Shown here one piece after another: positions 26,406 through 55,491 of a stretch of 64,000 nucleotides of DNA. The DNA comes from Schmidtea polychroa. Lineage: Eukaryota. The notes under the pieces were generated by a model. The model worked only from the letters and a program-made list of their open reading frames with translations. It did not search any database and had not been told where the DNA came from. Numbering within the stretch: the first letter of the stretch is position 1; the number at the start of each line of letters is the position of its first letter. The position numbers were made by a program, and so were the translations under genes. The stretch spans positions 27,592,001 to 27,656,000 of the forward strand of contig CM097885.1 of the NCBI GenBank assembly GCA_044892525.1, in the 5' to 3' direction.

Positions 26406-27378
26406 ATGATTTGTGGTAAATTCGAATTATGTATATTTGATCAAACATCACCCAAAGCGGTAAATGAATTTGGGGCATTTGAGGAAGTTTTTCATATGAA
26501 TTCAATTATCGATAGTAGAAATGATATCGAGTTTTATATTAATGGTTCGCAAACTGAATATTTAGATTTGAACGATACTTTATTGACTGTTCAGATCAAG
26601 TTTGTAGATAAAGATAGAAAAGTTTTGGATGTCAATGCAGATGTATTACCAAACAATTTCCTGTTTCATATTCTTTTTAAAGATGCAGTGTTGGGATTTA
26701 ATAATATCAAGATTGAGGGTGGAAATAATGCATTCATTCACAAAGCTTTAATAGAAACTATTTTAAATTACAATTCTGATACTAAAAATACATGTCTTAC
26801 TCCTATGGGTTATGTGGCAAAAGATGATGAAAGAAAAAAATTTGTTAAAGGCTCAAAGCTTTTCACCATGTGCTCATCATTACAACTCGATTTTGTGGAT
26901 CAACCAAAATATTTACTAGCAGGAGTTAATGTACACATTAGAGATTCTACATTATCTCTTACTAGTACAGGTGCACCAATATGTCAATTAGTTGATGCAA
27001 AATTATTAGTGAGAAGATTTCGAGTGGACCCATCAGTATTAGCTGGGCATCAATTAGTTTTAATTCAAAACATGCAATTTAGATATTAGAAACAAAGGAA
27101 ATTGTACAATTTGCTATTGCTAAAGGTGCTTTATCATTCTACAAAGAACAAATATTTGGTGTTAGAAGAATGCCAAATTTTATTCTGATAACATTTCAAA
27201 GTGAAACACAATATAATGGATCATATACTGCTTTCAGCTGAATTTTCAAAAACTTTGGTGTTACATCATTGACTTTGTCAAAAAGTACTGATTATAGAGA
27301 AACATATACTCAGGATTTCGACATTAATAATTACTGTGATACATATATGCAGAGTATTGTTAGAAACTATGATAAATA
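26406..27378 (+). pseudogene. Maverick/Polinton major capsid protein (double jelly-roll, F54H12.2-like family), frameshifted and truncated
   Basis: Contains ELCIFDQ, IEFYINGSQTEYLDLNDTLLTVQIK, NFLFHILFKD, KALIETILNY..TK, DFVDQPKYLLAGVNVHI and AKLLVRRFRVDPSVLAGH. After a frameshift it continues as GALSFYKEQIFG..MPNFILITF..YNGSY. All match the motif series I recognise for this family. Confidence 0.88.
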
Positions 27379-27409
27379 ACTGTAATTCGGCAAAACAATC
27401 TGGAAGCGA

Positions 27410-27625
27410 TGGGACCAGGAAAAATCGGACATAGGCCTTCTATCAGCATTCCGTGAACTCAAGTGAGTACTGGACAATTATAGTATTGCCGGTACTCAAA
27501 CCCTTGGTACAGTACCAACGTTGATCACTCAACGGGTATCAAGCGGTCGACCTGTAATTGTATTCTGGGTTACACTGGAAACAACACGACAGGGTAGAAT
27601 GTTTGATTACCTGTAACACACCAGT
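27410..27625 (+). repeat. Copy of the unclassified dispersed repeat of about 250 bp, at the break point of the capsid pseudogene
   Basis: Core nearly identical to 38280-38460. Confidence 0.8.
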
Positions 27626-28932
27626 GTGACCTTCGAACTCACCATCAAAAGTCCTTTTGAATGATATATAACTTGTAAGGTTTGAAAAACATTTAAGCTT
27701 GAACACCCTTTGAAGGTTATTGACCCACCATAAACTTTTGAGATTATGACCATCATACTTAGGTCCCAAATACCTGTGAAATGATGTATATATTATAAGG
27801 TTTGAAAAATTCGAAGGTTTTTTACCATTTGAAGGTTAAGGACACACCATACACCTTCGAAGGTATGACTATCATACCTACCTCCCAAGTACCTTAGAAT
27901 TATAAATATATTATAAGGTTTGTAAACATTTGAAGGTTATTGATGCACCATACACCTTCGACGAGATGACAATTTAATAGATCTCTTCAAGACCTTTCGA
28001 ATGATACCCTTGGTTGAAGGTCTGACCTTATTTGTCCTTTGGAAATTCAAATATAAAAATATGATGAGTGATGCCGATGAGTCATCATAGGATGAGTCAT
28101 ACAGATGAGTTATATAAAATATTTAAAAAAAATAAAAAATAGAATATATATAGGGGGTGATGAGTCATATGTCTTTGTTCCGTAAAGTGATGAGTGATGA
28201 GTCTTTGTTCCTGGCTCCTCATCCTACCATACTATTGCCAGATAACACACAAACTCACACGGATTGCCCGATAACACACAACCTTCTACTTCATGTCAAC
28301 CAAAAGTCGAGTAAAAAGTTCCAGTGGGCGTACAGCACAGTTTTATAAATTCATTATATTTGATAATATATCGTTAAATAAATCATCAATTCTGCTAAAT
28401 TATTTTCCTGAATAAATAAATATTCAAAAGATTAATTAAACATAAAAAAATTAATTTTTTTACAGGTATTAAATATGTATAATAACTATTTTAAAAAATG
28501 TTAATTGCAACAAGAAATTTACAAAACAATTTTAATGACCTGACCCTGAATCAAAAGCACAGTGAAACTATTACATGTTTACTCTGCGAGAGTTTGAAAA
28601 GGTAAAGTTTAGTACCCGACACGACAACGCCTGACAAGGGTTTCACGTATGCACTGTACGTAATTCGCGAGGTAAAATATTTTTGTATCACCCCCTTTAC
28701 ATAACTGTATTTTCAAGAAAATTACAATAACCTCATAAATTCAAATTAAATAAATAATATTAATGTAAATGATCAAATGTACTACATATTGTTTTAAAAT
28801 GAATGCATTTGTTTAGAATAAACATTATAATATGATTATTATGAAAATTAGAGTAGCTTAATGAATATTTCAATTACGTGGCTAATAATCTAAGCATGTC
28901 CATGCGATACCGTATTGGATAATAAATTTTTA

Positions 28933-32523: not shown

Positions 32524-35500
32524 TTAAAATTTTATTTTTCTTGCTTTTATGGAAGCAAATTTATCCAATACATCATTTATTTTGATTTTGTCACAGATAT
32601 CGCTTTCAATAGCAATCAAAGACAGGCCAACTAGTCTTTCTTGAGAATTGGTTGAGCGTAAATAATTCTTAATTAGTTTAAGTCTGGAAAATGATTTTTC
32701 GCCAGCTGCTACTGAGACTGGTAGTGTTAATAATATTCTCAAAGATACAACTATATTTGGAAATATATCAAATAAATCATTTGAATAAATATACTGCAAT
32801 ATATCTAATGGATCAAAACTATTAAGTTAAGTTATGGTGTCTTTAAATATACACAGTTCGTTACATAATTCTGAAGAACTTATATCTATATCTTCACCAT
32901 CAGTTAACACATTATGTAAATCTGTACATTTATTTCTTAGTATCTCATTATCCAAATTATAAATTTCATTAAAATTTATGAGAAATTAAAACTTTTCGGC
33001 ATCAAATCTTTCGACTATTGGGTTAATTGCACTGTCAACAATTGGAAGAAAAAATGAAATTTTATAGTTTTTTTTTCCGGGTCTGTCGGTCTTTCATCTC
33101 GACATTCGTAGTTAAACATACGTTTTTACGCCTACGTAATGGATTTTCTTTAAATTGAGGAGCTATGTCAATATCATGTGCCAAAATTGTAGCTTTTTTA
33201 ACCTTCAAATGGTATTCATTTGTACCAACGCTAACCGCGTTAAGGACAAAAATATCTACCATATATTTTTGTATCAAAATGTAATTAAAAAAAATTTTTT
33301 TTAAGTTCATTAGTTTTTTATTTACATTCAAATATATAAAACAAAAATAAAAATTCAAAAAACTATTCAAAATTTTAACCAAAATAATATAAAATGGACT
33401 TAACATAATAAATTTCTTTAATTTTTCAATTATTATGACAAGCAGGACAAATATATTTTACATGGTTTTTGCATACATAATTTTTACATTTATTACATTT
33501 TATTGTGGTTTTTTCCGTTCTGATAGGACAAGTAGAACACATGCCTCTTTTCGAAGCTTTAGGCCAAAAAACAACGAATGGCCATCTTCTAGATTTTCTT
33601 TTTGTAGAATAACAGGATACCATTTTATCTAAAGTATCCACTCCGCCTTTTGTGGCATTATAATATTTGATAATTTCAGGTTTACGTTGAGGTTCATTAG
33701 TTATAACTTCATCAGACAAATGTAGAGTACTTTGCATCACTACGCATCGATATTTTTTAGGTACATAAGATACTAGTGTTGTATCTTTTGTAAAAACAAA
33801 TTTTGATGTATATTGTGGCAAAGATCTTGTATTCAAAATTTCTGGTGGGATTGTTGGTTTATTTTTTCTTAGTGTACCCACCATTGTTATAGATTTTTCC
33901 AGGAGTTTTGGCCAAGCTGATATGATGTGAAAAAATTGTCGAGTGTTATGTTGTGACCTTTGAGACCCTTCACTAAATCTAGTACAATTCTCATACCTTG
34001 ATTTGTTCCGGGAGCAGCATCCGGTTGTTTTCCTAAATATGGCTGTATTTTCCAAGCGTAGTAAGACTTGCTGCAAGCTGCAATCCAAAATTTAATCCCA
34101 TATTTCGCAGGTTTACTTTTCATATATTGGCGAAAAGGACATCGACCATGAAAACCAAGTAGTTCTTCATCAACTGTCACATTCTCTGATGGATTATAAA
34201 ACATGGGTAACCTTTCACTCCATGCATTCCACAATTCTCGGATTGGCGCAAATTTGTCATTCATACGTCTTTCTGACCGGGTTTCTTTTTTATCAAATCT
34301 AAGAATTTTTGAAATATTTTCAAATCTTTTCAATGGCATGGTTGCACGTAACAAAGGTCTACCCGTAGTTTCATGCCATAAGCTTTCAGTTGCTTCATTT
34401 TTTGACTTATAAACACCCGCTAAAATCAAGCATCCAAAATTGGAATAAAGTTCAGTTGCATCCAAATCCTTCCAACTATCTCCAAAAACGGTGTTTCCTT
34501 CACTGTTTGAGTTTTTCAAAATCATATTTTCAATAGCTTTCGGAAAAAATATCATGAATGCACTGTTTATATCAGTGATATGTCAAATCAAAAATCATAT
34601 GTTTGTTGTAAACAGGTAAAAACAAATCATGTTTGAACAGGAATTTCATTATAGACATTTTTGTCCACATTACAGTCAACGTGCATTTTTTTATACCTAG
34701 AAATCTGTATGACACCATAAAATAAATTAAGCGGCAAATTATTAATTTAAAAAAAAGAAGAATTTACATTGAAAAATCTTTCAAACTTAAGTTTGTATTC
34801 AGGCGTTATTTACATTTAAAAAATAATTTTGACAAAAATGTCAACAATACCATATAAAGGTTAAGTATATTTTTAAAATTTTCATCTAAACGAAATTCTT
34901 TAAAAAAAGTTATTAAATTATTTAAACTATTTGTTGATTCATTTAGGTTGGTACTTAAAGATTGAAACATCTTGCTCACAACATTAATCCTTCTTAAAAT
35001 GTCCTACCAAATTATCAGCGAACAAACAAATTCGTAGTCAAGCTGCAGTGCCAAAGATTTAGCTTCAGATTTTGTGTTGTTGTCATTTCTGTCATTATCA
35101 TGGATGGCAAGTAAAGCGTCTAAATAATCACCAATATTGTTTTTTATTGGGCTAAGAGCATCAATTCTTGATTCCCATCGTGTATCCGATAAAGGTTTAG
35201 GCGTCATTTTGCTATATTGTTTAAAACATCCCACCAATTTGTGGAAGCACTAAAAAAATTATAAAGTTCTTGTATAATGCCAAAAAAAATTATAGTTTCT
35301 GTATTACCTTTAGCAGCATCACATACTATTAGATTCAATGTGTGAGCTGCGCATGGTACAAAAAATGCTCGAGGGTTCTTATCCAAAATGCGTTTTTGAA
35401 CACCGCTGTGTTTACCACGCATGTTAGAGCCATTATCATAGCCCTGTCCACGTAAGTTTTTTAAATTTATATTTAAATCTTCTAACTTAGCAACTATGCT

Positions 35501-36722
35501 TTTAAACAAACCTTCGCCAGTAGAATCAGCTATTTCTACGAAACACAAAAAATGTTCTTCTACAGTAATTTGATTGCTTTCGTTTTTATGGACTAATCTG
35601 AGAATAATATTCATTTGTTCAGTGTGACTGATATCACGAGTGTATTTAATATTATGGAAAAATATTTAGCATTTATCACCATCTCGACAATAGCGTCGAC
35701 TATTTTCTTTGAAATTAAGGATATTATTTCGTTTTGAATATTTTTTCCTAAATAATGCACTGTGTCCTTTTGAGTATTATGAATTTTTGCGAGATTGTTT
35801 TCCATAACCATATCAAATTTAGAGAATAGTTCAACTAATTTTAAGAAATTACCATTGTTATTTTGGAAAATAATATCTGACGAGCCTTGAAGAGCTAAAT
35901 TTTGTTTAGCGAGATATTTTATTATTTCAACAATTCGTTCTAACACATCGCGCCAATGTCGTTTTTCTCTTTCATATACATTTTCAAGTTCAGTATCTAT
36001 TGTGCTAAACTTTTCTAATCGTTTTTTTACATCAACCCACTTTATAAATGATGTTAAATGGGATTTAGTTACTTCATGACTACTCAGAGTTTTGATAAAT
36101 TTTGCCAATTTGAGTAACCATCTGTGGTCAAAGAATTTGTTCCGCCTGCAAATAATTTGCAACATGCACAAAAAACACAATTTATAGAACATGAATATAT
36201 AAGCCATGTTCGTGAAACAGTATCTTTATTTGCTATCTTACGATAGTAATAGTTATTACTCAAACTACGACCACAATCGTCTCGACTATATAATTTTTAT
36301 TCTATCGGTATCATCGAACCTTGCTAAATAATAATTTTCCGAAGTTTGTCATTTATAACTTTGGGCCAAGTAGCTGGATCATTTGATTTAAATGAAATCA
36401 ATACTTCATTTTGCCTCACTGTTTCACTTACTGTTCCTGAAGTTGTTTGGGGTGATAAATGTAAATTAGATTCACATTCTGTGGTCGACGTGGTAGCGAT
36501 ATTGTTATGTCCTTCGTGTTCATGTGGTAAAGTTAAGGAAGGTGAATCAATAACCATTTTGGACTGTGAATGAATGTAATTCTTTCGGTTCATTACTGTT
36601 TGCAGAAATTTCATCCGTTTTTTGAAAGAATTTGTTTATTTGACCTGTTACCTTCTTTTGTTCCGCATCCCGTATCGCTTTTCTTTTGCGGCACTCTGCT
36701 CCAGATAATTTTTTTCTCCATT
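32524..36722 (-). pseudogene. hAT transposase, multiple frameshifts and a piggyBac insertion
   Basis: Fragments in order: SNDPATWP, LAKQNLALQG..NNGNFLKLVEL..YLGKNIQNEII, RGQGYDNGSNMRG..PCAAHTLNL, LSDTRWESRIDAL, LTLPVSVAAGEKSFSRLKLIKNYLRST. Confidence 0.95.
33202..34860 (-). mobile_element. Internally deleted piggyBac element (PGBD4-like transposase pseudogene, 34555-33426) nested in the hAT transposase
   Basis: TTAA at 33198-33201 and 34861-34864, with imperfect TIRs CCTT.A.ATGGTATT. Motifs TVDEELLGFHGRCPFRQYMKSKPAKYGIK, DNFFTS, YNATKGGVDTLD and a C-terminal Cys-rich domain are present. Removing it restores the hAT frame ENFKNILKKATILA. Confidence 0.95.
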
Positions 36723-38460: not shown

Positions 38461-40285
38461 CAAATGCGCAGATTGACTGCTCAGCCTTCGATTATTCAAA
38501 CGATGTGTGTGCAATTTTCTCTATATAGTGATTCACACTGTCAATATGCAGAGCTCCATAAGCACTGTTGTGCGTTTGTGCGATTTTGTTATGAAATTTA
38601 ATTATATTATATTACCGAGCTAAATCTTTTGGTTTTCTTTGATTTTTTATACTTAAATATTGAAAATAGACGAATATAAGAAATTTTAGAAAAATTTAAT
38701 AAATATCAATAAAGTTATCAGTAATTGGAATTCAAATAGAGACTCACAGGCTCTGTTGTGTTTTAGGGTTAATAAAGTGTTTGATATAAAATAATTGGTA
38801 AACAAAATCTCCAAGTTTTTCAGATGAGGTGGCAGCAGTAGGGGTACACAGATCCCGACAAACCACGGGCCAACCCCCTACCCCTGCTAAGGATTTTTGC
38901 TTTTTCCTAAAAAACAGGATTTTTATGTAGGTCAATCCAAATTTATGATTTTTAAAGATTTTTTATAAAAAATTATGTAGAACAATACCAATTTATTTAA
39001 TTTTTCAAATCGACTTTTAAATCATATTTTATATAGTTTAATTAATATTTAGGTCTCACACACACTATATAGTTTTAGGGTAGAAAAAATGGTCTGTATG
39101 AAATGGGCAATAAATAATGGATATCTCATTAACGTTTAACCTCGCTAAAAACAAACGGGGATAGAGGCCTATATTGGCTTGCTAATATGAAGCTGAACCA
39201 ATGTGTAGAATACAGTATATTAAGGCCTATTTTAGTTCTCAGACTTTTTGGATATGTTGGGTATTGTCGGTGAAATTAGAAATGAATAACTATCAATCTG
39301 ATTCCAAGCGTGTCTTAAAATATCAACAAGAACGACAACTTATCTATATTACCAATATTTATTGTTTATCACAATCACAATCGATTTGACATCAGTAGAG
39401 AGAAGTGTGCTCCATGACTCATCGTTTTTTGTCATTTTTTTGCACTACCCCCCCCGATGACTCAGCGCAAAACAAAGACATATGACTCATCGATGACTCA
39501 TCCATAGCAACAGCGGTAACTGGGTCAAGGTTATATGACTCATCCATAGCAACCGTGGTAACCACGGTAACTAGGTCAAGGTCATTCTATTTTTAGTAAC
39601 TAGGTCAAGGTCATTCTATTTTTAGTAACAATGTCACGTGACGTCATCGATGACTCATCAAGGTCGTCCTATTTTTAGTAACAAGGTCACATGACGTCAT
39701 CGATGACTCACCAAGGTCATTCTATTTTTAGTAACTAGGTCAAGGTCATTCTATTTTTAGTAACAAGGTCATATGACTCATAATTTTTGAAACAAAGCCA
39801 ACTGACTCATTGTTAAAGTACATATGACTCATCATTTTTTTAAACAAAGACATATTTAATATTTAAACAAAGACATTAAAACAAATATTTAAATAAATAC
39901 ATTTAAACAAAAATTTAAATAAATACATTTAAACAAATTTTGAAATAAATACATTTAAACAAAAATTTAAATAAATACATTTAAACAAATATTTAAATAA
40001 ATACATTTAAACAAATATTTAAACAAAGACATTTAATCAAATATTTAAACAATGACATGTAAACAAATATTTAAATAAATACATTTAAACAAATATTTAA
40101 ACAAAGACATTTAATCAAATATTTAAACAATGACATGTAAACAAATATTTAAATAAATACATTTAAACAAAGACATATAGACAAAGACTCATCGATGACT
40201 CATCGAGGTCAGTGTCGTGTTTTAAGGTCAAGGTCATATTTAAATTTCCAAAGGTCAAATAAGGCCAAACCTTCACACAAGGGTA

Positions 40286-40871
40286 TCATTCGAAAGGTAT
40301 TTGAGAGGTAAATATGATGGTCAAACCCTCGAAGGTGAATGGTGGGTCCTTGGCCTTCAAAGGGTACAAAACCTTCGAATTTTTTCAAACTATAATATAT
40401 TTATCAAACAAAAGGTAATACAAAGGTAAATATGATGGTCATACCCTCGAAGGTGAATGGTGGGTCCTCGATCTTCAAAGGGTAAAAAACCTACGAATTT
40501 TTTCAAACTTTATAATATATATATATCATTCGAAAGGTATTTGAGAGGTAAATATGATGGTCATACCCTCGAAGGTGAATGGTGGGTCCTTGGCCTTCAA
40601 AGGGTACAAAACCTTCGAATTTTTTCAAACTATAATATATTTATCAAACAAAAGGTAATACAAAGGTAAATATGATGGTCATACCCTCGAAGGTGAATGG
40701 TGGGTCCTCGATCTTCAAAGGGTAAAAAACCTACGAATTTTTTCAAACTTTATAATATATATATATCAGTCGAAAGGTATTTGAGAGGTCTATCTAATGG
40801 TCATATCCTCGAAGGTGTATGGTTGGTCAATAACCTTTAAAGGGTTAAAAACCTTCGAATTTTTTCAAACT

Positions 40872-40907
<36 letters not shown>

Positions 40908-41128
40908 TCGAAAGGTATTTGAGAGGTAAGTATGATGGTCATACCCTCGAAGGTGTATGGTTGGTCAATAACCTTCAAAGGGTCAAAAACCTTCGAATTT
41001 TTTCAAACTTTATAATATATATATCAGTCGAAAGGTATTTGAGAGGTCTATCTAATGGCTATACCCTCGAAGGTATATGGTGGGTCAATAACTTCAAAGG
41101 GTGTCCAAAATTAAATATTTTTCAAATC

Positions 41129-41177
<49 letters not shown>

Positions 41178-42240
41178 TTCAAAAGGACTTTTGATGGTGA
41201 GTTCAAAGGTCCAAGGGTCGAAGGGTCCAAGGTTCAAAAATTTTAAAACCTTATAATATACATATCAAACAAAAGGTATTTGAGATGTAAGTATCATGGT
41301 CATACTTTCAAAGGTTTATGAATGGTCCTGAACCTTCAAACCTTCAAAGGGTCCAAAACCTTTAAAAATTATACATATAGATATATACATGTCAAATAAA
41401 AGGTAATACAAAGGTGAGTATGATGGTCATACCCTCAAAGGTCATACCACCGAAAGGGTCCAAGGTTCAAAAATTTTAAAACCTTATAATATACATCAAA
41501 CAAAGGTATTTGAGATGTAAGTATCATGGTCATACTTTCAAAGGTTTATGAATGGTCCTGAACCTTCAAACCTTCAAAGGGTCCAAAACCTTTAAAAATT
41601 ATACATATAGATATATACATGTCAAATAAAAGGTAATACAAAGGTGAGTATGATGGTCATACCCTCAAAGGTCATACCACCGAAAGGGTCCAAGGTTCAA
41701 AAGTTTTAAAACCTTATAATATACATATCAAACAAAAGGTATTTGAGATGTAAGTATCATGGTCATACTTTCAAAGGTTTATGAATGGTCCTGAACCTTC
41801 AAACCTTCAAAGGGTCCAAAACCTTTAAAAATTATACATATAGATATATACATGACAAATAAAAGGTAATACAAAGGTGAGTATGATGGTCATACCCTCA
41901 AAGGTCATACCACCGAAAGGGTCCAAGGTTCAAAATTTTTAAAACCTTATAATATACATCAAACAAAAGGTATTTGAGATGTAAGTATCATGGTCATACT
42001 TTCAAAGGTTTATGAATGGTCCTGAACCTTCAAACCTTCAAAGGGTCCAAAACCTTTAAAAATTATACATATAGATATATACATGTCAAATAAAAGGTAA
42101 TACAAAGGTGAGTATGATGGTCATACCCTCAAAGGTCATACCACCGAAAGGGTCCAAGGTTCAAAAGTTTTAAAACCTTATAATATACATATCAAACAAA
42201 AGGTATTTGAGATGTAAGTATCATGGTCCAAGTTTGAAGG
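40286..42240 (+). repeat. Satellite arrays in the left TIR: about 120-bp units (partly as 240-bp dimers), then about 232-bp units
   Basis: AAAGGTA motifs at about 40292, 40411, 40532, 40651, 40772, 40910 and 41029. CCAAGGTTCAAAA at about 41227, 41460, 41690, 41923 and 42154. Confidence 0.95.
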
Positions 42241-42898
42241 TCAAAGAGTCTAAGGATCCAAGGTTTAAATTTTTCAAACCTTGTAATATACATATCAAAC
42301 AAACGGCAATACAAAAGTACTCATCGATGACTCATTTATTTTTTGAACAAAGACAATGACGCGCCCATGGGATTTATTATTTATTACTATCATTAGTATT
42401 ATTATTATTTATTATTATTAATTTCAATATTATTTATTATTATCAATAGTATTATTATTATTTTCGAAGATATTATCAAAATTTATTATTAATATTATTA
42501 TTATCATCAAGTTTTAATTATCAAGGTAATTTAAACAAAGACTCAGCCGCTGAGTCACCAAGGTCGTTCTATTTTTAGTAACAAAGACATCTATTTTTGT
42601 TCCGGCGGTTTATTTTTGTTTTAATAATCGATTACGTAATAATTTAATTTTGTTTAAATCGTTGATTATATTATTTTTTTTGTCGTTCTATTTTTTGTCG
42701 TTCTATTTTTAGTAACAAAGACATCTATCAAACAAACGGCAATACAAAAGTACTCATCAATGACTCATTTATTTTTTGAACAAAGACAATGACGCGCCCA
42801 TGGGATTTATTATTATTAATATCAAAATTATTATTATTATCAATATTATTTATTATTATCAATAGTATTATTATTATTTTTATTATTATTAATATTAA

Positions 42899-42977
<79 letters not shown>

Positions 42978-43214
42978 ATTATATTCATGTCTTTGTTAAT
43001 CATGCACGTTTATTGCAAAGTCTTTGTTAATTATGCAAGTGTATTGCAAATTTATTAGTCATACCTTGATATTAATTTTACACACATACTCAATCCATTA
43101 TTATTATTGCAAGTATTAGAGAAAAACCTAAAATATTTCCACAGACACAAGTCTATTCGAAAGTATACATGCTAGGATTACACACCTTAAGGGTAGAAAA
43201 ATATTTCTGAGTGA

Positions 43215-44350
43215 TTGTGTGTGCAATAGCCAAAAATAATAAATTTTATCAAATACATGTAAATTTTTTTAAAAAATCTATGTGTGTGTTATTGGTAGAG
43301 TGTGAGTGTGTAAAATATGAAATTTTATTAAATACATGTATAAATTTAGGTAAATTTTAAGAAAAATCTATGTTTTTTTGTGTTTGTGTGTTACGGGTAT
43401 AGTATGTGTGTGCGTAAATATGAAATTTTATCAAATACATGTAAATTTAGTTAAATTTTATGAAAAATCTATGTTTATTGTCTGTGTGTGTTATGGGTAG
43501 AGTATGTGTGTGTGTAAAAATTTTATCAAATACATGTAAATTTCTTTAAAAAATCTATATGTGTGTTTGTCCTATGGGGTAGAGAATTTATGAAAAATCT
43601 ATATATGTGTGTGTTATGGGGTAGAGTATGTATGTGTAAAAAACTTTTATCAAATACATGTAGATTTCTTTAAAAAATCTATGTGTGTGTGCTATGGGGT
43701 AGAGTATGTGTGTGTGTAAAACTTTTATCAAATACATGTAAATTTCTTTCAAAAATCTATGTTTTCTGTGTGTGCTATGGTTAGAGAATTATTATGGGTG
43801 TATGTGTGTAAAAATATTAAATTTTATCAAATACATGTAAATTTCTTTCAAAAATCTATGTTTTCTGTGTGTGCTATGGTTAGAGAATTATTATGGGTGT
43901 ATGTGTGTACAAATAATAAATGTTATAAAAATCATGTAAATTTCTTTAAAAATCTATGTTTTCTGTGTGTGTGTGTGGTATGGGTAATTATTATGGGTGT
44001 GTAAAAAACTTTTATCAAATACATGTAAATTTCTTTAAAAAATCTATGTGTGTGCTATGGTTAGAGAATTATTATATGTGTATTTGTGTACAAATAATAA
44101 ATTTTATAAAAATCATGTAAATTTCTGTAAAAAATCTATGTTTTCTGTGTGTGTGTGCTATGGGGTAGAGTATGTGTGTGTAAAAAACTTTTATCAAATA
44201 CATGTAAATTTCTTTCAAAAATCTATGTTTTCTGTGTGTGTATGTGTGTGTGCTATGGGGTAGAGAATTATTGTGTGTGTATGTGTGTAAAAATATGAAA
44301 TTTTATCCAATTTCTTTAAAATTTATGAAAAATCTATGTTTTTGTGTGAA
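43215..44350 (+). repeat. Minisatellite of about 70-85 bp inside element A
   Basis: TTTTATCAAATACATGTAAATTTCTTTAAAAAATCTATG-(TG)n-CTATGGGGTAGAG is repeated more than ten times. Confidence 0.92.
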
Positions 44351-44494
44351 TTATACATGTATTGCACATGCTTATTTTAACACGGGTATATATGCTTAAT
44401 ATGTGATTATACTCTGAGTTTATCCGACAAGATATTTTGTCCCCCTATGGGTAATGTTCACACTCAACATGTTGCAAGTGTACTGCTCACAAGG

Positions 44495-44548
<54 letters not shown>

Positions 44549-44834
44549 TCAGAGTTTATCCGACAAGATATTTAGTCCCCGGATGGATAATGCTCATATA
44601 CAACATGTCTCAAAGGGCATATTATTAAATTCTGACTAATCAATGAAGGGGTAGAACAAAAATATATTACTTTTGTGGTATGTTAAAATCTTATTTTCAA
44701 AACATATTTTGACGCCATTTTCATTAGATGCAAGAACATTTTCATAATTATTTTCATAATTTTTGCATCGATTTCATGATTTTCAACATTTTCATCATTT
44801 GCATGAATATATTATTTTCAAAGTTATTTTCAAT

Positions 44835-44914
<80 letters not shown>

Positions 44915-45010
44915 TCGATGGGTTTTATATAGGGTATCCGAATGTTGTAATAAGCAATATTTTTATTGTTTTTCATGATTATTTTCTTCAAAATTCTTAT
45001 TTTATAAAGT

Positions 45011-45100
45011 ATGACTCATTCAAGGTCATATGACTCATCAAGGTCACGTGACTCATCGATTACATTTTGAAAATTCTAATTTGATTGGTTATATCTATTG
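45011..45100 (+). promoter_or_regulatory. Putative promoter of the RING cargo gene: three TGACTCA (AP-1 type) sites alternating with two TCAAGGTCA sites, then an inverted CCAAT box
   Basis: ATGACTCATTCAAGGTCATATGACTCATCAAGGTCACGTGACTCATCG at 45011-45058, ATTGG at about 45084, ATG at 45139. Confidence 0.6.
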
Positions 45101-45138
45101 TGATAAATGTAAAAACAAAAGTAATTTAGTTATTACTG

Positions 45139-45777
45139 ATGATTTCTACAAGTAAAACTGTTGAATATGATTGTGTAAATCACAAAATGTATTTGGTAAC
45201 TTTATTATTTTATCAATTTTTTTGTGATTTATAGCAAGGAACTCGAAATAATGAAAGATTAAGTCTATCCTATTCTGAAGATAATCGCTCATTGAAATTT
45301 TTTAACATAGTTGAAGATTTTATAAATAATCATGATGCTTACACTGATAAGAAAATCATAAATGTTTTAAAAATTTTCAAACATTCCTCTATTGAATATT
45401 TGATTGATTTATTTAATTATGATAAATGTATTTTGAAGTTTAGTTATTTAATGTATTTTGAAAAAACAGTGGTAAACAACGATACACTAAATGAATACTT
45501 TTGGAGTTGCATGTATTTAAGATTGAAACCGGGATATAGTAGATTGATTTATGAATGGATGGCGAAAGTCGATTTGATTGAAAATAAACTAACGGAAAAA
45601 CTGAACGATGTTAAGAAAATGTATTTAACTTGTTCAATCTGTAAAGAAAATCAAGTTTCGGTTTTGTTTTTACCGTGTGGTCATGTAATTGTTTGTTCTA
45701 AGTGTCACGAGAAGAATGTTCGCAATTGTCAAGCCTGTTCAACTTTGATTAATGAATATCATACTATATATATATAA
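45139..45777 (+). CDS. Spliced 199-aa protein with C-terminal IAP/MDM2-type RING finger (putative E3 ligase), cargo of element A
   Basis: Exon 1 45139-45195, a 39-nt GT-AG intron 45196-45234 ending in an in-frame TAG, and exon 2 45235-45777, open throughout. It ends CSICKENQVSVLFLPCGHVIVCSKCHEKNVRNCQACSTLINEYHTIYI. No BIR motif is visible. Confidence 0.85.
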
Positions 45778-46822
45778 TTTCTCAATACAAATTTCTAGTG
45801 TCTTTTTTTGAATCATGCACATTTATTGCTATTTTGTATATTTTTTAGTTAATTTATAAATATTATCTGACATTTTGATGTGTCAATGCAAATATATATA
45901 CAACAAATTAATCAATAAAGATTGTAAGTTCTTTTATATACTCAGAGTTTATCCGACAAGATATTTTGTCCCCCTATGGGTATTTGTCGTAAAGTTACTG
46001 GTCGCTAGGGTAATTAAGGCACATGTATATATATAAATTCTTAGGTAATTTAGTGAGAAATATTTGGGTAATATTTGAAATGTAACTTTATTCTTATTTC
46101 GAACGATTAATTTATTGATTAACTTTGTCATTTAAAAGGTAATTTAGTAAAATATTTTCATAGGTAATTTATTCATCTAATGTTCATTACAATAGTTAAC
46201 TTCGTGAGAAATACATGGTCATTAATAACAACATTGATTTTTTGGAGTAAAAATCTTTGTTCGAGTCATAATAGAAATATGATCATCTGGTTAACCAATT
46301 AAGGTGTTTATTAGTTAGAATTCTAATTTATTATCATTGTAATATATCTTTGTGAGAATAAGTTAAGATTTTTGAGCAACATTTACCAAAACATGAATAT
46401 TTTGTGCGAAGAATATTGGTTAAATATGTCATTTAAAATAATATTTTCAGACAATAATTAATAAATTCATTGGTTAATTTATATCTTTGTGAGAAATACA
46501 TGATCATTTATTGACAATTCATTAATAAATTTGGTATAAATTCTTTATCATTTGGAGTAATTTTTGTCAAATTTCTATTTTTTATTATTATAGAAACATG
46601 ATCGTTTGGTTAATTTACATGGAGTAATATGATGAATTTCAAGTGAAATAAAGTTTTCAGTTAATTAATATATCAAATTAATTTAAAATTGAGGATACAC
46701 TGATGAAAATTCTAAACAAATATTTGCATCCACACATATATTTGAACATCACATAATAAAAACTCATTAATTTAAAATATTGCAACGTAAAATACTGCGT
46801 AATAAATGATACTGAATCGCTC

Positions 46823-46892
<70 letters not shown>

Positions 46893-47286
46893 TGAAAAAT
46901 AATAATATGACATTGATATTAATAATAATATTAAATTAATACTTTGAAAATAAAATAAGAATTTTGAAGAAAATAATCATGAAAATATTGAAAATCGTAA
47001 AAATATCTTTTGGAAATAATATTAATAATAATAATACTTTGAAAATAATAATACTATGGACTTGTATTTGAAAATAATATACATTTAGCGACCAATACCC
47101 ATAGAGGGACAAAATATCTTGTCGGATAAACTCAGACTATATGTATAGCACTAGCAATAATAATAATGGATTGAGTATGTGTGTAAAATTAATATCAAGG
47201 TATGACTAATAAATTTGCAATACACTTGCATAATTAACAAAGACTTTGCAATAAACGTGCATGATTAACAAAGACATGAATATAAT

Positions 47287-47343
<57 letters not shown>

Positions 47344-47599
47344 TATAATAATAATAATAATATTAATAATAATAATATTAATAATAATAATAATAATAAT
47401 ATTAATAATAATAAAAATAATAATAATACTATTGATAATAATAAATAATATTGATAATAATAATAATTTTGATATTAATAATAATAAATCCCATGGGCGC
47501 GTCATTCTGAAAACAGATGTCTTTGTTTTAAAAAGTGATGAGTCATTGTCTTTGTTATAAAAAGTCAGCGATGACTACCTTTGTAGTACCTTTTGTTTG

Positions 47600-49075
47600 A
47601 TATGTATATTATAAGGTTTGAAAAATTTGACCCTTGGACCATCATACTCATCTTTGTATTACCTTTTGTTTGATATGTATATTATAAGGTTTTAAAACTT
47701 TTGAACCTTGGACCCTTTCGGTGGTATGACCTTTGAGGGTATGACCATCATACTCACCTTTGTATTACCTTTTATTTGACATGTATATATCTATATGTAT
47801 AATTTTTAAAGGTTTTGGACCCTTTGAAGGTTTGAAGGTTCAGGACCATTCATAAACCTTTGAAAGTATGACCATGATACTTACATCTCAAATACCTTTG
47901 TTTGATGTATATTATAAGGTTTTAAAATTTTTGAACCTTGGACCCTTTCGGTGGTATGACCTTTGAGGGTATGACCATCATACTCACCTTTGTATTACCT
48001 TTTATTTGACATGTATATATCTATATGTATAATTTTTAAAGGTTTTGGACCCTTTGAAGGTTTGAAGGTTCAGGACCATTCATAAACCTTTGAAAGTATG
48101 ACCATGATACTTACATCTCAAATACCTTTTGTTTGATATGTATATTATAAGGTTTTAAAATTTTTGAACCTTGGACCCTTCGACCCTTGGACCTTTGAAC
48201 TCACCATCAAAAGTCCTTTTGAATGATATATATATATATTATATGATTTGAAAAATATTTAATTTTGGACACCCTTTGAAGTTATTGACCCACCATATAC
48301 CTTCGAGGGTATAGCCATTAGATAGACCTCTCAAATACCTTTCGACTGATATATATATTATAAAGTTTGAAAAAATTCGAAGGTTTTTGACCCTTTGAAG
48401 GTTATTGACCAACCATACACCTTCGAGGGTATGACCATCATACTTACCTCTCAAATACCTTTCGACTGATATATATATATATATTATAAAGTTTGAAAAA
48501 ATTCGAAGGTTTTTAACCCTTTAAAGGTTATTGACCAACCATACACCTTCGAGGATATGACCATTAGATAGACCTCTCAAATACCTTTCGACTGATATAT
48601 ATATATTATAAAGTTTGAAAAAATTCGTAGGTTTTTTACCCTTTGAAGATCGAGGACCCACCATTCACCTTCGAGGGTATGACCATCATATTTACCTTTG
48701 TATTACCTTTTGTTTGATAAATATATTATATTTTGAAAAAATTCGAAGGTTTTGTACCCTTTGAAGGCCAAGGACCCACCATTCACCTTCGAGGGTTTGA
48801 CCATCATATTTACCTCTCAAATACCTTTCGAATGATATATATATATTATAAAGTTTGAAAAAATTCGTAGGTTTTTTACCCTTTGAAGATCGAGGACCCA
48901 CCATTCACCTTCGAGGGTATGACCATCATATTTACCTTTGTATTACCTTTTGTTTGATAAATATATTATAGTTTGAAAAAATTCGAAGGTTTTGTACCCT
49001 TTGAAGGCCAAGGACCCACCATTCACCTTCGAGGGTATGACCATCATATTTACCTCTCAAATACCTTTCGAATGA
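47600..49075 (-). repeat. Satellite arrays in the right TIR (mirror of 40286-42240 with fewer 232-bp units)
   Basis: TTTTGAACCTTGG at about 47700, 47930 and 48161; 120-bp units at 48240-49075. Confidence 0.95.
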
Positions 49076-52000
49076 TACCCTTGTGTGAAGGTTTGGCCTT
49101 ATTTGACCTTTGGAAATTTAAATATGACCTTGACCTTAAAACACGACACTGACCTCGATGAGTCATCGATGAGTCTTTGTCTATATGTCTTTGTTTAAAT
49201 GTATTTATTTAAATATTTGTTTACATTTCATTGTTTAAATATTTGATTAAATGTCTTTGTTTAAATATTTGTTTAAATGTATTTATTTAAATATTTGTTT
49301 ACATGTCATTGTTTAAATATTTGATTAAATGTCTTTGTTTAAATATTTGTTTAAATGTATTTATTTAAATATTTGTTTAAATGTATTTATTTAAATTTTT
49401 GTTTAAATGTATTTATTTAAAAATTTGTTTAAATGTATTTATTTAAATTTTTGTTTAAATGTATTTATTTAAATATTTGTTTAAATGTATTTATTTAAAT
49501 ATTAAATATGTCTTTGTTTAAAAAATGATGAGTCATACATACTTTAATAATGAGTCAGTTGGCTTTGTTCCAAAAATGATGAGTCATATGACCTTGTTAC
49601 TAAAAATAGAATGACCTTGACCTAGTTACTAAAAATAGAATGACCTTGATGAGTCATCGATGACGTCACGTGACATTGTTACTAAAAATAGAATGACCTT
49701 GACCTAGTTACTAAAAATAGAATGACCTTGACCTAGTTACCGTGGTTACCACGGTTGCTATGGATGAGTCATATAACCTTGACCCAGTTACCGCTGTTGC
49801 TATGGATGAGTCATCGATGAGTCATATGTCTTTGTTTTGCGCTGAGTCATCGGGGGGGGGTAGTGCAAAAAAATGACAAAAAACGATGAGTCATGGAGCA
49901 CACTTCTCTCTACTGACATCTGCTAATACAATTCCACGAAGGATTCACCACTCAAGACTCTAAACTCTGAACTTATTAAAACTGACAGTGGGTAATAGTC
50001 CAATCAATAACTGCCAAACTACATGTTTAATCGAACTCTCTTGATATATTTATACCACTCAACAGGTTCCTTTAACTTTTCTTTGCTTTCGGTTTCCGTA
50101 ACATTGTTTCGCCAAATGTCTGCTTATTTTTTCGTAGAGTTTCTTCACTCTATTTTTTTTCATCTTACAACTTCTGTTTTCGTTTTTTATTATCGCCTTT
50201 TTCAGTTTTGCATGGCTCATAAGTAGATGGTAGTGTGCCCGCAAGACCACATACCCCCCCCCCCCCCCGGCCGGAAATTTTTTTTTAAATAAAAGGTCAA
50301 GGTCATTTTATTTTCAAGGTCATATTTTAAAATTTAAATTTACAGAGTTCCCGCCAACGGGATTTAGTGAATATTCAAGTGAATTACTATAATTTTTGTG
50401 AATTTCATGTTAATTGAAAGAATATTTAAAAATTTAAGGTTTTATTGTTAATTCTAAGACAAATTTAATTAATTTCTTGATAATTTGCTATATTTTATTG
50501 ACTTGTTTTTTAAATAAAAATTATTTTTTATGATAGTTAGGTTAATAATTAGAGTTTTTACAATAATCAAGTGATAGGATAAATTATTTAATTTTTATGA
50601 TGACTTTGTAATGATAATTTGATTAAATAATTTTTTCATATATTTTCTAAGAATATTTCCATTTACGCATTGATGAACTTTTAAATATTGAAAATCTAAA
50701 GTTGAAACCAGCTAATTTATCATGAATTTTATTTGAAATCTACTTGAAAATTATTGTAAAATATACTGAAATTTGTGATTTAGTTTGGAAGATGTATCAT
50801 GTTATAATTGCTATAATTGGCTGAATCGATGAAGAATTATGATCAAACAATGAGAAATTATCATCCCTAGTTAGATATTTGATGGTAAATGTGGTGAAAT
50901 ATTTGTAGAAAATATTGATTTTAATGAATTTGATCTTTTAGTGGGCTCTTACTACATGAATTTATGTACTAAATTATTTCAATTGAAAAATGTTTGGTAT
51001 CTGTAACAATTAAATAAAATTCATATTTTGAAGAATTTTCTATGGATTTTAAAAGAATTGATCTATTAACGGGCTCAAGTGGGTGAAATTAAGGGATATA
51101 GCCGGTTGGATTTAGTAAGGGTTTGGTTAAGATGGGAATATATGATTTTTAAGGAATATATTCGGTCGGATGTTTAAAGGGGTAGAAATATTTGGTGAGG
51201 GATCGGTTAAGGTGGAAATGTTTTGAATATCTCTATTTAAATCGACAATTTTCTTAATGGTAAAATATCAATGTTTCAAGAGAAATAGTCAGTATTTAGC
51301 TATGAGTCAATAATAGTTCCTGTGAAATTATATCGTTTTAGGTTTATTAGGTTGTAATGAATGTAATTGCATAGTAATTTAGATTTATGTTTTACTTTAG
51401 AACCAGTTTCTATTAATTATCCACGGTTTTATTAAGTCGTTTAGGGTTAATGATCAATTAGGTGTTTATTTACTTGGTTTTGACAATGAAATATCTGAAA
51501 TCTTTAGAATTAATTGGGAATGATATCAAAGGTTATTGCTTTAAATTATTTACCTTTAATTAATATGTTATAGACGGATATTCATTGTGGGGATATCGGT
51601 GACAAAACTTGAGAAATATTGACTTAAAAGAGTTGGACATCGACAGCAAATAAAGAAAATTGAACATTATTGAAGGAAATTTATGATTTTAATTAGAAAT
51701 TAAATCGGTTGAATATCAGCTAAGGGTAAAATATGGTCATTTGAAGGAATATTGTTATCGGGTGGATAAATCTTTCAATGATATTTTGCTAAATTACCTT
51801 TTGCTAAATATTATTTTAAATGACAAAGTTAACCAATAAATTAGTCGATCGAAATAAGAATTCGGTAAAAGTTACATTTAAAATATTCCAATTATTCACG
51901 AATTTCTGATAAAGATATATATGAACATCTATTTCTCACTAAATTACCTAGGAATTTCTAACTGATATACATGTACCTTAATTTAATAATTAGTATACCC

Positions 52001-52611
52001 TTGCAACATGTTGAATGTGACCAGTACCCTTGCTAGCAATACCCTTAGGGGGACAAAATATCTTGTCGGATAAACTCGGAGTATAAGAACTTGCAATATT
52101 GATACATCAAAATACTGTTATTTAAAAAATTAACTAAAAATACTCAAAAATACTATTATCTAAGAATTCATTTACTGAATGATATCTTAAAATTTAAGAC
52201 TTAAATGATCTTGCTTTTAATATACATATGAATTGATTTCTAAAATAATCATGTTTTTCTATCAAACATGCATAAATTGAATATAAATTTGCTGAATGTG
52301 AAATAAACATGTTTCTTGCTAAAGAATTTACTAATTAATATCTCCGAATGATATTTCGCTGAAAGGTATATAAAATCTCTATGAATTTGTTAAATGTTTT
52401 CCTCAATATAAATTGTTAATTAGTTCCTAAAATAGTCACAGAATTGTCCTAAGAATATATCATCACCATTTGGTAGTTGCGCCCAATATATTTAATTACC
52501 AAGATTATTTCATATTATTCAATGTTTGAAAATTTTCTACATTATAGTACCGTCATTATGTATGGTAATAATTCATTTGACTTTGATATTGTATTGATTT
52601 ATATTGAGAAC

Positions 52612-52814
52612 TTACATGTATATAGTATGATATTCATTAATCAGTGTTGAACAGGCTTGACAATTGTGAACATTCTTCTCGTGACACTTAGAACAAACAA
52701 TTACGTGACCACACGGTAAATACAAAACCGAAACTTGATTTTCTTTACAAATTGAACAAGTTAAATACCTTTTCTTAACATCGTTCAGTTTTTCCGTTAG
52801 CTTATTTTCAATCA
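52612..52814 (-). pseudogene. 5'-truncated second copy of the RING cargo gene, in element B
   Basis: Reads IENKLTEKLNDVKKRYLTCSICKENQVSVLYLPCGHVIVCSKCHEKNVHNCQACSTLINEYHTIYM*, about 10 substitutions from 45575-45777. Confidence 0.92.
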
Positions 52815-54389
52815 GTGTAAAATTTTTATGAAATAATTTTCCAAGTCAAAATTAAATACAAATTTATATTAAATTAATTTCAAAGACAGATTTCAATTAA
52901 CCACTACTAATAAAAATAATAGTAAATGAAAAGGGTAAATTTTAAAACTAACTAATAAATTTAGAAAGAGAATGAGAATTGATAGTAATAATTAAATTAA
53001 AGTAAATTATGGACATAAATTTTTAATTAAAGTAATAATTTTTAATCTATTATAAAAAAGTTTGAATGATAGTCAGGTTTTGAGAAATGAAAATTTTAAT
53101 GAAATAGTTTTTAAAGAAAATTTAGATGCAAATTTTACAAATAATAATAATGATAATAATGATAATAAAATAATATTAATAAAAATAATAATAAAAATAA
53201 TACTTTATATTGCTAAGCATTAATAATGTAATTATATTTGAATATTTTTTATTCATGTATAACAATTAATTAAAACAAATATAAATAATATTAATAGATT
53301 AAATTAATTAAAATGGAATTGAGAAATGATGCAGTATATCAAATTATTGATCCAAGGGCTGTGGGAAAACATTATTTGTTTATAAATTATTACAATCAAA
53401 TATGTTTAAGTCAAAATTTAAAAGGTCAACCAGATACTTACAATAAAATACTTACAACAATGTATTTCTAACAAGCAGCTAGATACCAAATACTTTCAAC
53501 ATGATACCACGTACTAACTAACTCTCAAACAACCAGATACATACAACTAACTACTTACAATCAACTAAATATTCTTCATTGTATTTTATGAAATGCTTTT
53601 TAAATTAATTTTTTATCTGTCTTCAAAATATGTTTAATTACAATCAGTAGAAAAACCTTTTCAAAATGTCTAAATTTAACAAAAATGATGATTTTCATCA
53701 AAAAATGAATAATTGTCAACTCATCACTACGTGGGATTGATGATAATTTAAATTAAAATGAAAGACTATAGAATTCTAATTTACAAAACATTCTTCTTTT
53801 AATTGATTACTACTGACTTATTATTGCAATGTAAAAATCGCATTCAATAAATACTTATTGTTGATCAGTTTTATTATATATACTCTGAGTTTATCCGACA
53901 GGATGTTTTGACCCCCTAAGGGTACTGGTCGTAAGGGTATTGCTAACACTCAACTCCCACCTACCCATTTACTAGATACTAGATACCAACAACCAACTAA
54001 CAACTAGATACTAAGTACTTACAACCGACAAAAACCAAGTACTAAGCATTATCAACATACAACTATATAACAACAATCAGTAAACATTGTATAGATCATG
54101 TTGTTGAAAATGTTATGAACTGTGGAGATGATGAATGTGAATGTGGTAATAAATTTTAGTGTATATTTAAAGTATAATATTTAGAATTTCTTTGTTAAAG
54201 TTTTGTCTTGAATATTTTTACCAGTAACTTTGTAAACAATACCCATGTGACTTGTCGAGTGTGAGCAGTACCCTGGTGATCAGTACCCTTGTGAGCAGTA
54301 CCCATAGGGGGACAAAATATTTTGTCGGATAGACTAGGAGTATATATATTAATACTAATAATAATGAAAATAATTATGTTGATAATATA

Positions 54390-55400
54390 TGGCTCAATCG
54401 AAAGGTCTTAGATTGGGCTTTAAAATGAGCTATCGTGGAACAGTTTTCGTTGACGGGAACTCTGTAAATTTAAATTTTAAAATATGAAAAAACGAATGAC
54501 CTTGAAAAAATAAATGACCTTGAAAAAATAAATGACCTTGAAAAAATAAATGACCTTGAAAATATAAATATATAAAAAAAAATTATTAATCGGGAAAACG
54601 TTAATAATTTTGCCAATAATAATGATAATAATAATATTTATATATCAGTAGATAGATCTTGCACTGGGCTTTAAAATGAGCTATCGATCGATGAAATAAA
54701 ACGATGAGAACGATAACGTTTGGGCAAACGAAAACCATGTGCCCGCAAGACCACTTAATAATTATATGACCTTGAAAATGATTTTTGGTAAAATGTTATT
54801 AACTTTGTTATATTATTGATGATGATGATACCTTCAATAGCTCATTCGAAAGGTCTTGGATCGGGCTTTACAATGAGCTGTCATTGAATAATTTTTGTTG
54901 GCGGGAACTCTGTAAATTAAAATATGACCTTGAAAAAACAAATGGCCTTGAAAAATAAATGACCTTGAATAAATAAATGACCTTGAAAAAAATGACCTTG
55001 AAAAAAAAATGACCTTGAAAAAATAATATTTTGAAAAAATAAATGACCTTGAAAATAGTCTCGGAAAAACGGTAATAATCTTTCCAATAATAATGATAAT
55101 AATAATATTTATATATCAGTAGATAGATCTTGCACTGGGCTTTAAAATGAGCTATCGATCGATGAAATAAAACGATGCGAACGATAACGTTTGGGCAAAC
55201 GAAAACCATGTGCCCGCAAGACCACTTAATAATTATATGACCTTGAAAATGATTTTTTGTAAAATGTTAATAACTTTGTCAATATTATTGATGATGATAC
55301 CTTCCATGGCTCATTCGAAAGGTCTTGGATTGGGCTTTAAAATGAACTATCGATGAATAATTTCCGTTAGCGGGAACTCGACCTTGAAAAAAAAATGACC
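54390..55400. repeat. Subterminal tandem repeats of about 450-470 bp in element B, with runs of ATGACCTTGAAAAA
   Basis: TCGAAAGGTCTT.GAT.GGGCTTTA at about 54398, 54847 and 55316. Internal copies of the terminal motif GTGCCCGCAAGACCAC lie at about 54739 and 55210. Confidence 0.9.
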
Positions 55401-55491
55401 TTGACCTTTTATTTAAAAAAAAATTTTCCGGCCGGGGGGGGGGTATGTTGTCTTGCGGGCACATGGTTTTGCGGGCACACTACCATCTACT

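Follow-up and report, generated by a model that had tools for sequence, protein, structure and literature searches.

A RING-carrying palindromic element of Schmidtea polychroa, very probably a non-autonomous satellite of gene-bearing Mavericks

We analysed a stretch of 64,000 bp of the Schmidtea polychroa genome (GenBank assembly GCA_044892525.1, contig CM097885.1, positions 27,592,001 to 27,656,000 of the forward strand), hereafter the window, which holds a palindromic element of 10,521 bp at 39394-49914 (positions without a contig label are those of the window). The host genome is 781 Mb and AT-rich, with four very large contigs, and C1 to C4 are contig labels of this genome. With its Maverick-type ends, its long inverted arms and a single RING gene, the element is very probably a satellite related to a family of gene-bearing Mavericks, here called family A. 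The explanation that best accounts for our results as a whole, and which we consider probable, is that of a non-autonomous satellite copied by these helpers, whose present layout arose by a one-off deletion of the centre of a palindrome and whose IAP-type RING protein is predicted to act on host ubiquitin signalling.

A multi-copy element and its gene-bearing relatives

The element starts with AGTAGAGAGAAG and ends with CTCTCTACT, the exact complement of this start, and the same six bases, GACATC, flank it on both sides (at 39388 and 49915). Given the local base composition, such a match would arise by chance with a probability of ~7e-4. AG..CT ends, a 6-bp target-site duplication (TSD) and terminal inverted repeats (TIRs) are all shared with Maverick/Polinton elements (PMC8097293; PMC8502044). 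The short terminal repeats (AGTAGAGAG..CTCTCTACT) are near, but not exactly, the (AGT)2 or (AG)3 motif of these elements (PMC8097293). An earlier reading of this DNA, made from its sequence alone, had claimed AGTAG..CTACT ends with a perfect 6-bp TSD and arms covering over half of the element; both claims stand, the arms representing 62% of the element around a core of ~4.04 kb. Exact arm pairing reaches 43110/47154, and ungapped extension reaches 43114/47150. The near identity of the arms, also claimed, holds only in part. Both arms consist mostly of tandem arrays and are 98.4% identical across 2,750 aligned bases (44 mismatches), but they also differ by ~1 kb of indels, and a part of the right arm (47400-47650) is 100% identical to other copies and 88.6% identical, over 149 bp, to its own left arm.

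As the sequence-only reading had stated, no polymerase, integrase, ATPase or capsid open reading frame (ORF) was detected inside the element. This result was obtained by tblastn (E<=0.01) of eight ORFs of a gene-bearing relative against the window, namely polymerase, integrase, ATPase, both capsid-like ORFs, a PZ-like, a TBP-like and one unnamed ORF; the only matches, at 26403-27367 and 53310-53384, both lie beyond the element. Simple repeats aside, 45235-45777 is its sole open frame with 80 codons or more, and this frame belongs to the RING gene. The features of the element are as follows.

39388..39393, no strand: left TSD, GACATC (flank comparison)
39394..43110, plus strand: left arm, 3.72 kb, starting with AGTAGAGAGAAG (exact inverted pairing)
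39394..40203, plus strand: terminal part in common with the family-A helper, with a 26-bp tandem array inside at 39858-40171 (sequence comparison)
40284..42228, plus strand: tandem arrays of ~120/240 bp, akin to the terminal repeats of an E-type family (75-97% in blocks), not to the helper
43281..44280, plus strand: TG-rich tandem array of ~100 bp, in both arms of the palindromic relatives
44417..47132, no strand: four GTCGGATAAACT words or complements (44417, 44553, 45946, 47121)
45010..45062, plus strand: three TGACTCA and two TCAAGGTCA words just 5' of the RING promoter region
45139..45195, plus strand: predicted exon 1 of the RING gene, 19 codons (comparative)
45196..45234, plus strand: predicted 39-nt GT-AG intron, phase 0 (comparative)
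45235..45777, plus strand: exon 2, an open 180-codon frame with a six-helix region and a C-terminal IAP-type C3HC4 RING
45631..45738, plus strand: RING, Cys133 to Cys168 of the exon frame, with eight zinc ligands
45914..45919, plus strand: the only AATAAA/ATTAAA within 420 bp after the stop
47148..47153, no strand: 6-bp filler at the deletion junction (junction string once in the genome)
47154..49914, minus strand: right arm, 2.76 kb, ending with CTCTCTACT (exact inverted pairing)
49915..49920, no strand: right TSD, GACATC (flank comparison)

The element belongs to a large family. Its terminal 100 bp has 624 candidates in the genome, and all of the 40 that were scored are at least 99% identical. 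For the RING frame, the 150 scored matches all show at least 88% identity, and the 76 matches with at least 92% identity group into 58 loci. Two RING matches were found at 18 of these loci (17 pairs inverted, 11 spaced by 3.7-3.95 kb) and a single match at the other 40. Only 2 of the 58 loci lie within 20 kb of one of the 93 family-A polymerase matches on C1-C4. We fetched 23 family-A RING loci, window included, hand-picked from the top matches; 17 display both ends and a perfect 6-bp TSD, and every TSD is different. The 16 non-chimeric copies among them measure 6.9-20.1 kb (median 13.4 kb), and no tight size limit is therefore apparent. The 58 loci and 17 distinct TSDs show multiple independent insertions of elements without enzymes of their own. 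On the other side, two of the fetched loci have both ends with unmatched flanks, and four are without one or both ends in the DNA examined.

Gene-bearing partners with the same termini, whose existence had been proposed, were also found. Two terminus-bounded stretches that we read are gene-bearing Mavericks of ~16.7 kb, one of them with the TSD TACGAC. The first 100 bp of the window element is identical to the helper, and ~0.7-0.8 kb is common to both at 84-97%. Helper ORFs include an A32-like ATPase, an integrase (rve+chromo), two capsid-like ORFs, a long ORF that combines an endonuclease VII domain with motifs of family-B polymerases, and a TBP-like ORF of 152 codons on the minus strand (Pfam PF00352), which is also present in related families. 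The C-terminus of the helper polymerase has 95 genome matches of at least 87%, about 44 of them in frames of at least 1,280 codons. A weakness of this assignment is that, in searches of Pfam, PHROGs and PDB sequences, neither the polymerase ORF nor the capsid ORFs matched a family of these kinds; their names come from motifs and gene order. A search with PF03175 returned 91 polymerase loci, apparently of another class, and the helper copies read were not among them. The palindromic organization is not restricted to satellites: at C4:87206000-87220500, each arm of an element carries a polymerase and a RING of 177 codons, the arms being 99.4% identical over 5.4 kb, and inverted polymerase pairs appear at several further loci in the polymerase match lists.

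A simple internal deletion of the helper was ruled out as the origin of the element: alignment to the helper covers just 15% of its length and is confined to the termini, and the rest is related to families E and C. The terminal part (39394..40203) is rich in TGACTCA, TGACGTCA and TCAAGGTCA words, which we take to be AP-1, CRE and nuclear-receptor sites, and is likely the replication origin and integrase site. The sequence relationships suggest that the element is likely copied and inserted by the protein-primed polymerase and the integrase of family A. Altogether, it is neither single-copy nor an element of another superfamily, and its reading as young, non-autonomous and of Maverick type, with many copies and with gene-bearing partners, is upheld.

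The same three words are dense at 39394-39850, 45010-45062 and 49520-49914 (2.7 per kb in the element vs. 0.15 outside), and they occur in the termini of several Maverick families. The block at 45010..45062 is found in family-A satellites and is absent from family-C copies; an inverted CCAAT box follows near 45085. The GTCGGATAAACT word is also present near family C and E termini and in the neighbouring element, and is absent from the helper copy read.

The RING gene, its origin and its product

The RING gene had been read as intact and spliced. Exon 2 is indeed open, and the predicted intron is supported by its length variation between copies (38-46 nt), by the conservation of its phase-0 position in a 35%-identical single-copy gene, and by the database protein P0004, which joins both predicted exon parts in one chain. 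In addition, early exon-2 indels are multiples of 3 in 11 out of 12 aligned copies. Against splicing, no contig joint was found at the predicted intron in four sequencing runs, and the X1 contigs that span it retain it. Contigs of presumed-RNA runs from two studies match the 3' part of exon 2, wholly or mainly, at 85-95% identity, and correspond to more divergent subfamilies.

Homologs of the gene occur in other Mavericks of this genome. In gene-bearing Mavericks of family C (182-184 codons, ~80% identical) and of family E (177 codons, 36% identical), it lies between the polymerase and the terminus. Homologs are also found in satellites with family-C ends and in tandem arrays of ~1 kb. These arrays, with a 182-codon RING and a period of ~1.03 kb, are located at C1:8681424-8731010 (~50 units, adjoined by polymerase fragments), C2:188140958-188165958 (~25) and C3:1769884-1774550. 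The single-copy chromosomal homolog (C3:44525270-44525915) has no Maverick flanks, has its intron at the same place and is 67-77% identical to P0004; a long terminal repeat (LTR) element and a transposase lie upstream of it. A 160-codon ORF with a helical region and a RING, in the C2:40110164 region, is near the database protein P0028 and distant from the RING family of the palindromic element.

The RING gene is not a new cargo, as two other Maverick families have a homolog next to their polymerase and a single-copy homolog exists in the chromosome. From these relationships, the satellite is taken to have acquired an existing Maverick accessory gene. The earlier view of the RING as the element's cargo thus holds in that one RING gene is carried, but this gene is an accessory of other Maverick families and is absent from both helper copies read. 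In the protein tree, the single-copy gene and P0004 group with the 177-aa Maverick family (100/100). As 11 of the 21 inner branches are open, the tree leaves the direction of transfer, host to element or element to host, undecided. Beyond this genome, a word-indexed protein search returned one close homolog only, and a HMMER search of representatives added distant ones. Distant full-length homologs exist in environmental assemblies. A metagenome scan gave 2 loci, including a full-length relative on a 1.3-kb contig, and an IMG/VR scan gave 36 loci with matches mostly within the RING alone, which were left out of the analysis. Look-alikes in the Atlas have scores <0.9 and belong to RING families only.

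The RING of exon 2 matches PF13920 with 39.9 bits (cut-off 27), and its zinc ligands are invariant among homologs. The predicted structure (pLDDT 87) shows six helices followed by the RING. By sequence and by fold, the closest solved matches are the RINGs of cIAP1, cIAP2, XIAP, BIRC7 and IDOL (root-mean-square deviation, rmsd, 1.0-1.8 A over ~60 residues), and viral matches cover the RING alone. As in IAP-family ligases and IDOL, the C3HC4 RING is C-terminal, preceded by a helix and followed by a tail aromatic; this residue, Tyr179 of the exon frame, is invariant in 9 out of 9 homologs and aligned with Phe616 of cIAP1. In IAPs, the tail aromatic takes part in dimer-dependent activation, and a role is described for the linchpin Arg (PMC6349121).

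The protein also differs from these ligases. It has a Ser at the position of the linchpin Arg606 (Ser169 of the frame), a Gln at a conserved Pro and a tail shorter by one residue. The linchpin Arg is absent in all 9 aligned homologs, where Ser, Gly, Ala, Ile or Gln occupies its place, and for this reason the predicted E3 activity is unproven; the E3 label itself derives from the predicted fold. No BIR was found with Pfam in the 180-aa frame, and the 19-codon exon 1 is too short for one. The N-terminal region has no significant structural match (best Z 5.0 in the PDB, none with E<=0.001 in a viral library), a search that neither names nor excludes a fold. A UBA-like unit before the RING is a weak hint, given by two methods in the same register. 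The structural comparison (VIA Z 4.5, rmsd 3.0, 59 residues, to cIAP1 386-447) is tied with unrelated helical bundles. The hhalign score is 14-15, against 9.5-9.8 for the 95th percentile of shuffled sequences (maxima 15.6/12.2), with a probability of 1.5-2.4%. The cIAP1 domain boundaries used here are those that we presume. A CARD reading of the helical region, from an extension of a hidden Markov model onto cIAP1, was unsupported by the fold searches. The homodimer prediction spoke neither for nor against a dimer (score 0.01). In our reading, the protein would be a BIR-less IAP-like RING, likely dimeric and, given the missing linchpin Arg, likely a weak ligase or a partner of other RING ligases instead of a strong E3 on its own. 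One published title refers to IAP degradation mediated by the cIAP1 RING.

Full IAP-like proteins are encoded elsewhere in the genome, which holds at least 150 BIR ORFs. At three loci that we read, an intronless BIR-RING ORF of 392-393 codons follows a TRAF-like ORF, and it retains the linchpin Arg. These ORFs lie in what resemble Burro-type retroelements; Burro giant LTR retroelements of planarians (PMC6431247) are, like the satellite, mobile and carry apoptosis and ubiquitin domains. In contrast to the satellite protein, theirs are full IAPs, and the similarity between the BIR-RING ORFs and the satellite RING family covers the RING only.

We then examined selection on the RING gene. The codon analysis kept 48 of the 55 extracted frames; the second, partial copy in the window was left out, as were the 177-aa family, the single-copy gene and a distant RING. 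Between satellites of families A and C, the ratio of non-synonymous to synonymous rates (dN/dS) is 0.18-0.24 (NG86), 0.27-0.35 (YN00) or 0.33-0.40 (LWL85). Moreover, 14 out of 27 changes are synonymous, where the same substitution types would predict 7 (P 0.003-0.02, five pairs sharing branches). This excess between two polymerase-less lineages suggests modest purifying selection between satellite lineages, and it argues against the RING gene being a neutral passenger that came from a gene-bearing Maverick and is decaying in an element of which only the ends matter. The same is true of the frame, uninterrupted by stops in 146 of the 150 best matches, and of the variants shared within family A (8 synonymous and 11 non-synonymous distinct), which are mostly synonymous or conservative.

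A passenger gene is nevertheless a serious alternative, to which we give somewhat less than an even chance, and several of the observations in its favour also weigh against our preferred explanation. Several copies inserted with perfect TSDs carry a read-through stop, a changed acceptor or a frameshift in both arms, and the neighbouring element keeps only a 3' piece of the gene. Spliced contigs are missing from the four runs. Several pairs show no synonymous excess: satellite C compared with gene-bearing copies gives 5/20 and 6/18 synonymous changes (P 0.3-0.6), and pairs within family A do not reach significance (P 0.06-0.28). Upstream of the gene, family-A copies have GATAAAT vs. TATAAAT in family-C copies. 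In addition, the selection signal could come from an unsampled gene-bearing carrier. A selected function of the protein within the satellite is held tentatively, at clearly less than even chances. The proposal that the element is a vehicle for a host-modulating ubiquitin ligase is retained only to the extent that the IAP-type fold and the modest selection agree with it; the lack of a linchpin Arg and of a spliced contig, together with the broken copies, does not.

Palindromic relatives and the layout of the window element

The one-gene layout described by the sequence-only reading is seen at the window locus, but whole palindromes with the gene in both arms exist among the relatives. These are near-whole palindromes of 13-16 kb, with the two RING genes around a 371-bp spacer. 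Self-complementary relatives have 90-98% of their length in inverted alignments, with a centre of 241-994 bp and the putative origin at both ends. The identical 371-bp spacer was found at four loci, on three contigs and in two haplotypes.

Seven copies mapped on one palindromic relative show resolved internal deletions, six of them across the centre and one that took out the left gene and left the spacer in place. Several further copies end at an AAT tract, where the breakpoint is not placeable. The window copy tracks the palindrome to 47147; after six filler bases it continues within the right arm, where every other copy examined is uncut. Its junction string occurs once in the genome. The one-gene layout with a ~4-kb core is therefore reasonably likely to be a private deletion product of the palindromic form. 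Long inverted repeats are known to be unstable, and less so with long spacers (PMC7999016). It should be noted, as a point against a one-off event, that many breakpoints fall in the same AAT tract and that 40 of the 58 loci have one RING match. As uniqueness was checked for the window junction only, some one-gene forms may spread by themselves.

In the 790-bp gene region of seven two-armed copies, we counted 0.43 changes within a copy vs. 5.4 between copies, and subfamily variants, one frameshift included, occur in both arms of copies. Arm homogenisation is not universal, since the terminal 520 bp differs between the arms of several copies (up to 78 differences) and a part of the right arm of the window element is closer to other copies than to its own left arm; this counts against our preferred explanation. 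Exchange between elements may have left traces as well. The window element is a mosaic, with family-A ends, E-related arrays and a RING gene 85% identical to that of family C. A chimera at C1:230945789-230962213 joins 8.6 kb of helper (99.5%) to a satellite, with a perfect TSD and two tandem RING copies, and a second one (C1:188015852-188036926) ends in helper DNA, with a flank match of 4/6. The first of the two would be an indirect sign of mobilisation in trans by the helper.

The co-occurrence of these footprints would fit free single strands that fold back and exchange with each other. Adenoviruses replicate through a panhandle. In the satellite, strand-displacement copying from a terminal origin would free single strands, whose arms could pair into a near-complete hairpin, so that variants would be copied from arm to arm. 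Strands of co-replicating elements might exchange segments, which would join the ends of family A with arrays of E type and a RING gene of C type, and one-gene copies would result from loss of the centre, often with an AAT tract at the breakpoint. A racket-like single-stranded intermediate of Maverick replication has been proposed from sequence (PMC4196379).

Variation in arm length could also result from a copy-back template switch at differing points of a one-gene unit, the palindromes being the end of the series. Arm ends do fall at many places, and gene-bearing relatives are palindromic too. Moreover, a 20-kb satellite (C2:176408734-176428813, 241-bp centre) has a Penelope-like insertion (reverse transcriptase, GIY-YIG) in both of its arms, which needs arm copying after insertion. 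However, one 371-bp spacer is common to four loci and two haplotypes; C3:31480999 has lost the left gene yet kept the spacer and the right gene, and the window junction cuts an arm that all other examined copies carry whole. We therefore consider this origin unlikely, and deletion of a palindrome remains our preferred explanation.

Two convergent genes around a short spacer might, instead of encoding a useful protein, be a source of RNA in hairpin or double-stranded form, by which Mavericks with a RING or the chromosomal homolog would be silenced, and Polintons are PIWI targets in a planarian (PMC8532177). The polyadenylation signal after the stop and the coding-type selection signal make this very unlikely. 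Finally, although long palindromes are hard to assemble, a fold-back artefact of assembly or a foldback transposon of another superfamily is hardly credible: TSDs are distinct at 17 loci, four loci share one spacer, arms vary in array units and in haplotype, and elements with integrase, ATPase and polymerase ORFs have the very same termini.

Surroundings, known systems and significance

The window holds other traces of Mavericks. A second non-autonomous Maverick-type element (50222-55491) lies 307 bp from the first, with short TIRs, another terminus family (AGTAGATGGTAGTG, 935 candidates for its end sequence) and the TSD CTCATA. Of the RING gene it retains just 218 bp, from the 3' end (52597-52814, minus strand, 94%). 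A decayed Maverick remnant (~25600-28230) contains a broken major-capsid-like ORF (26403-27367, 64-72% to that of the helper) and arrays 67-79% like the arms of the palindromic element. Apart from Mavericks, a glycoside hydrolase 31 exon was found at 3933-5483 (minus strand), a DnaJ exon at 20902-21240, a piggyBac-type transposase inside a broken hAT element at 32524-36635 and a Tc1-type fragment at 14275-14535.

The founding Polinton paper reportedly described non-autonomous Polintons, and the text examined of 10.1101/2024.01.15.575659 and PMC11131425 adds nothing further on these. Like known Mavericks, the satellite has gene-bearing partners with an ATPase, an integrase and an endonuclease-VII-bearing polymerase-like ORF, and the size of its palindromic form is in or near the 12.7-24.6 kb range of Mavericks (PMC8097293). 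Unlike vertebrate Mavericks, it lacks core genes, its arms measure 2.8-9 kb vs. 46-1,447 bp for their TIRs, and its accessory gene has a predicted intron, whereas the core ORFs of intact vertebrate Mavericks are intronless (PMC8097293). RING is not among the accessory genes described in the excerpted text on adintoviruses (PMC8502044). Some butterfly polintons are without polB, and others have gene-containing TIRs of 2 kb (10.1101/2025.02.07.637071). They share with the satellite mobile polB-less insertions and long TIRs (~2 kb) that double genes; in contrast, their arms contain core genes (hexon, adenain), whereas the satellite is a whole palindrome that doubles an accessory RING. Mavericks are also expanded in planarians (10.64898/2025.12.11.693146).

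A second comparison is provided by adenovirus panhandle replication and by the snap-back genomes of adeno-associated virus. Copy-back and snap-back genomes of linear DNA viruses are, like the satellite, self-complementary, retain the terminal origin and depend on a helper. The satellite differs in being integrated with TSDs, heritable and a mosaic of three families with an open gene, and it is known from DNA sequence alone. We found no description of a whole-palindrome or RING-bearing Maverick satellite in the literature searched, although Repbase, subscription journals and supplements may hold such.

A more far-reaching possibility, which we regard as unlikely and speculative, is that the self-complementary satellite switches helper by recombining onto new termini and keeps, through selection, a BIR-less IAP-type RING that its helper lacks and that tunes the IAP ligases of the host or of retroelements. 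If true, the satellite would supply a host-manipulation function to its helper in return for replication, as satellites of plant viruses and phages do; no report of such an exchange in Mavericks was found in the literature searched. The sequences also document gene flow that links three Maverick families with a chromosomal gene, and they provide a small RING of IAP type, of natural origin, with neither a BIR nor the linchpin residue. Even if the RING is a passenger, the element would still represent a large, young and palindromic repeat class that is relevant to genome assembly and stability. Free linear DNA molecules that replicate together would leave just such footprints, namely palindromic satellites with variants common to both arms and chimeras of helper and satellite inserted as a single unit. 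Both give markers testable by polymerase chain reaction and long reads in an animal where Polintons are known to be de-silenced on PIWI loss.

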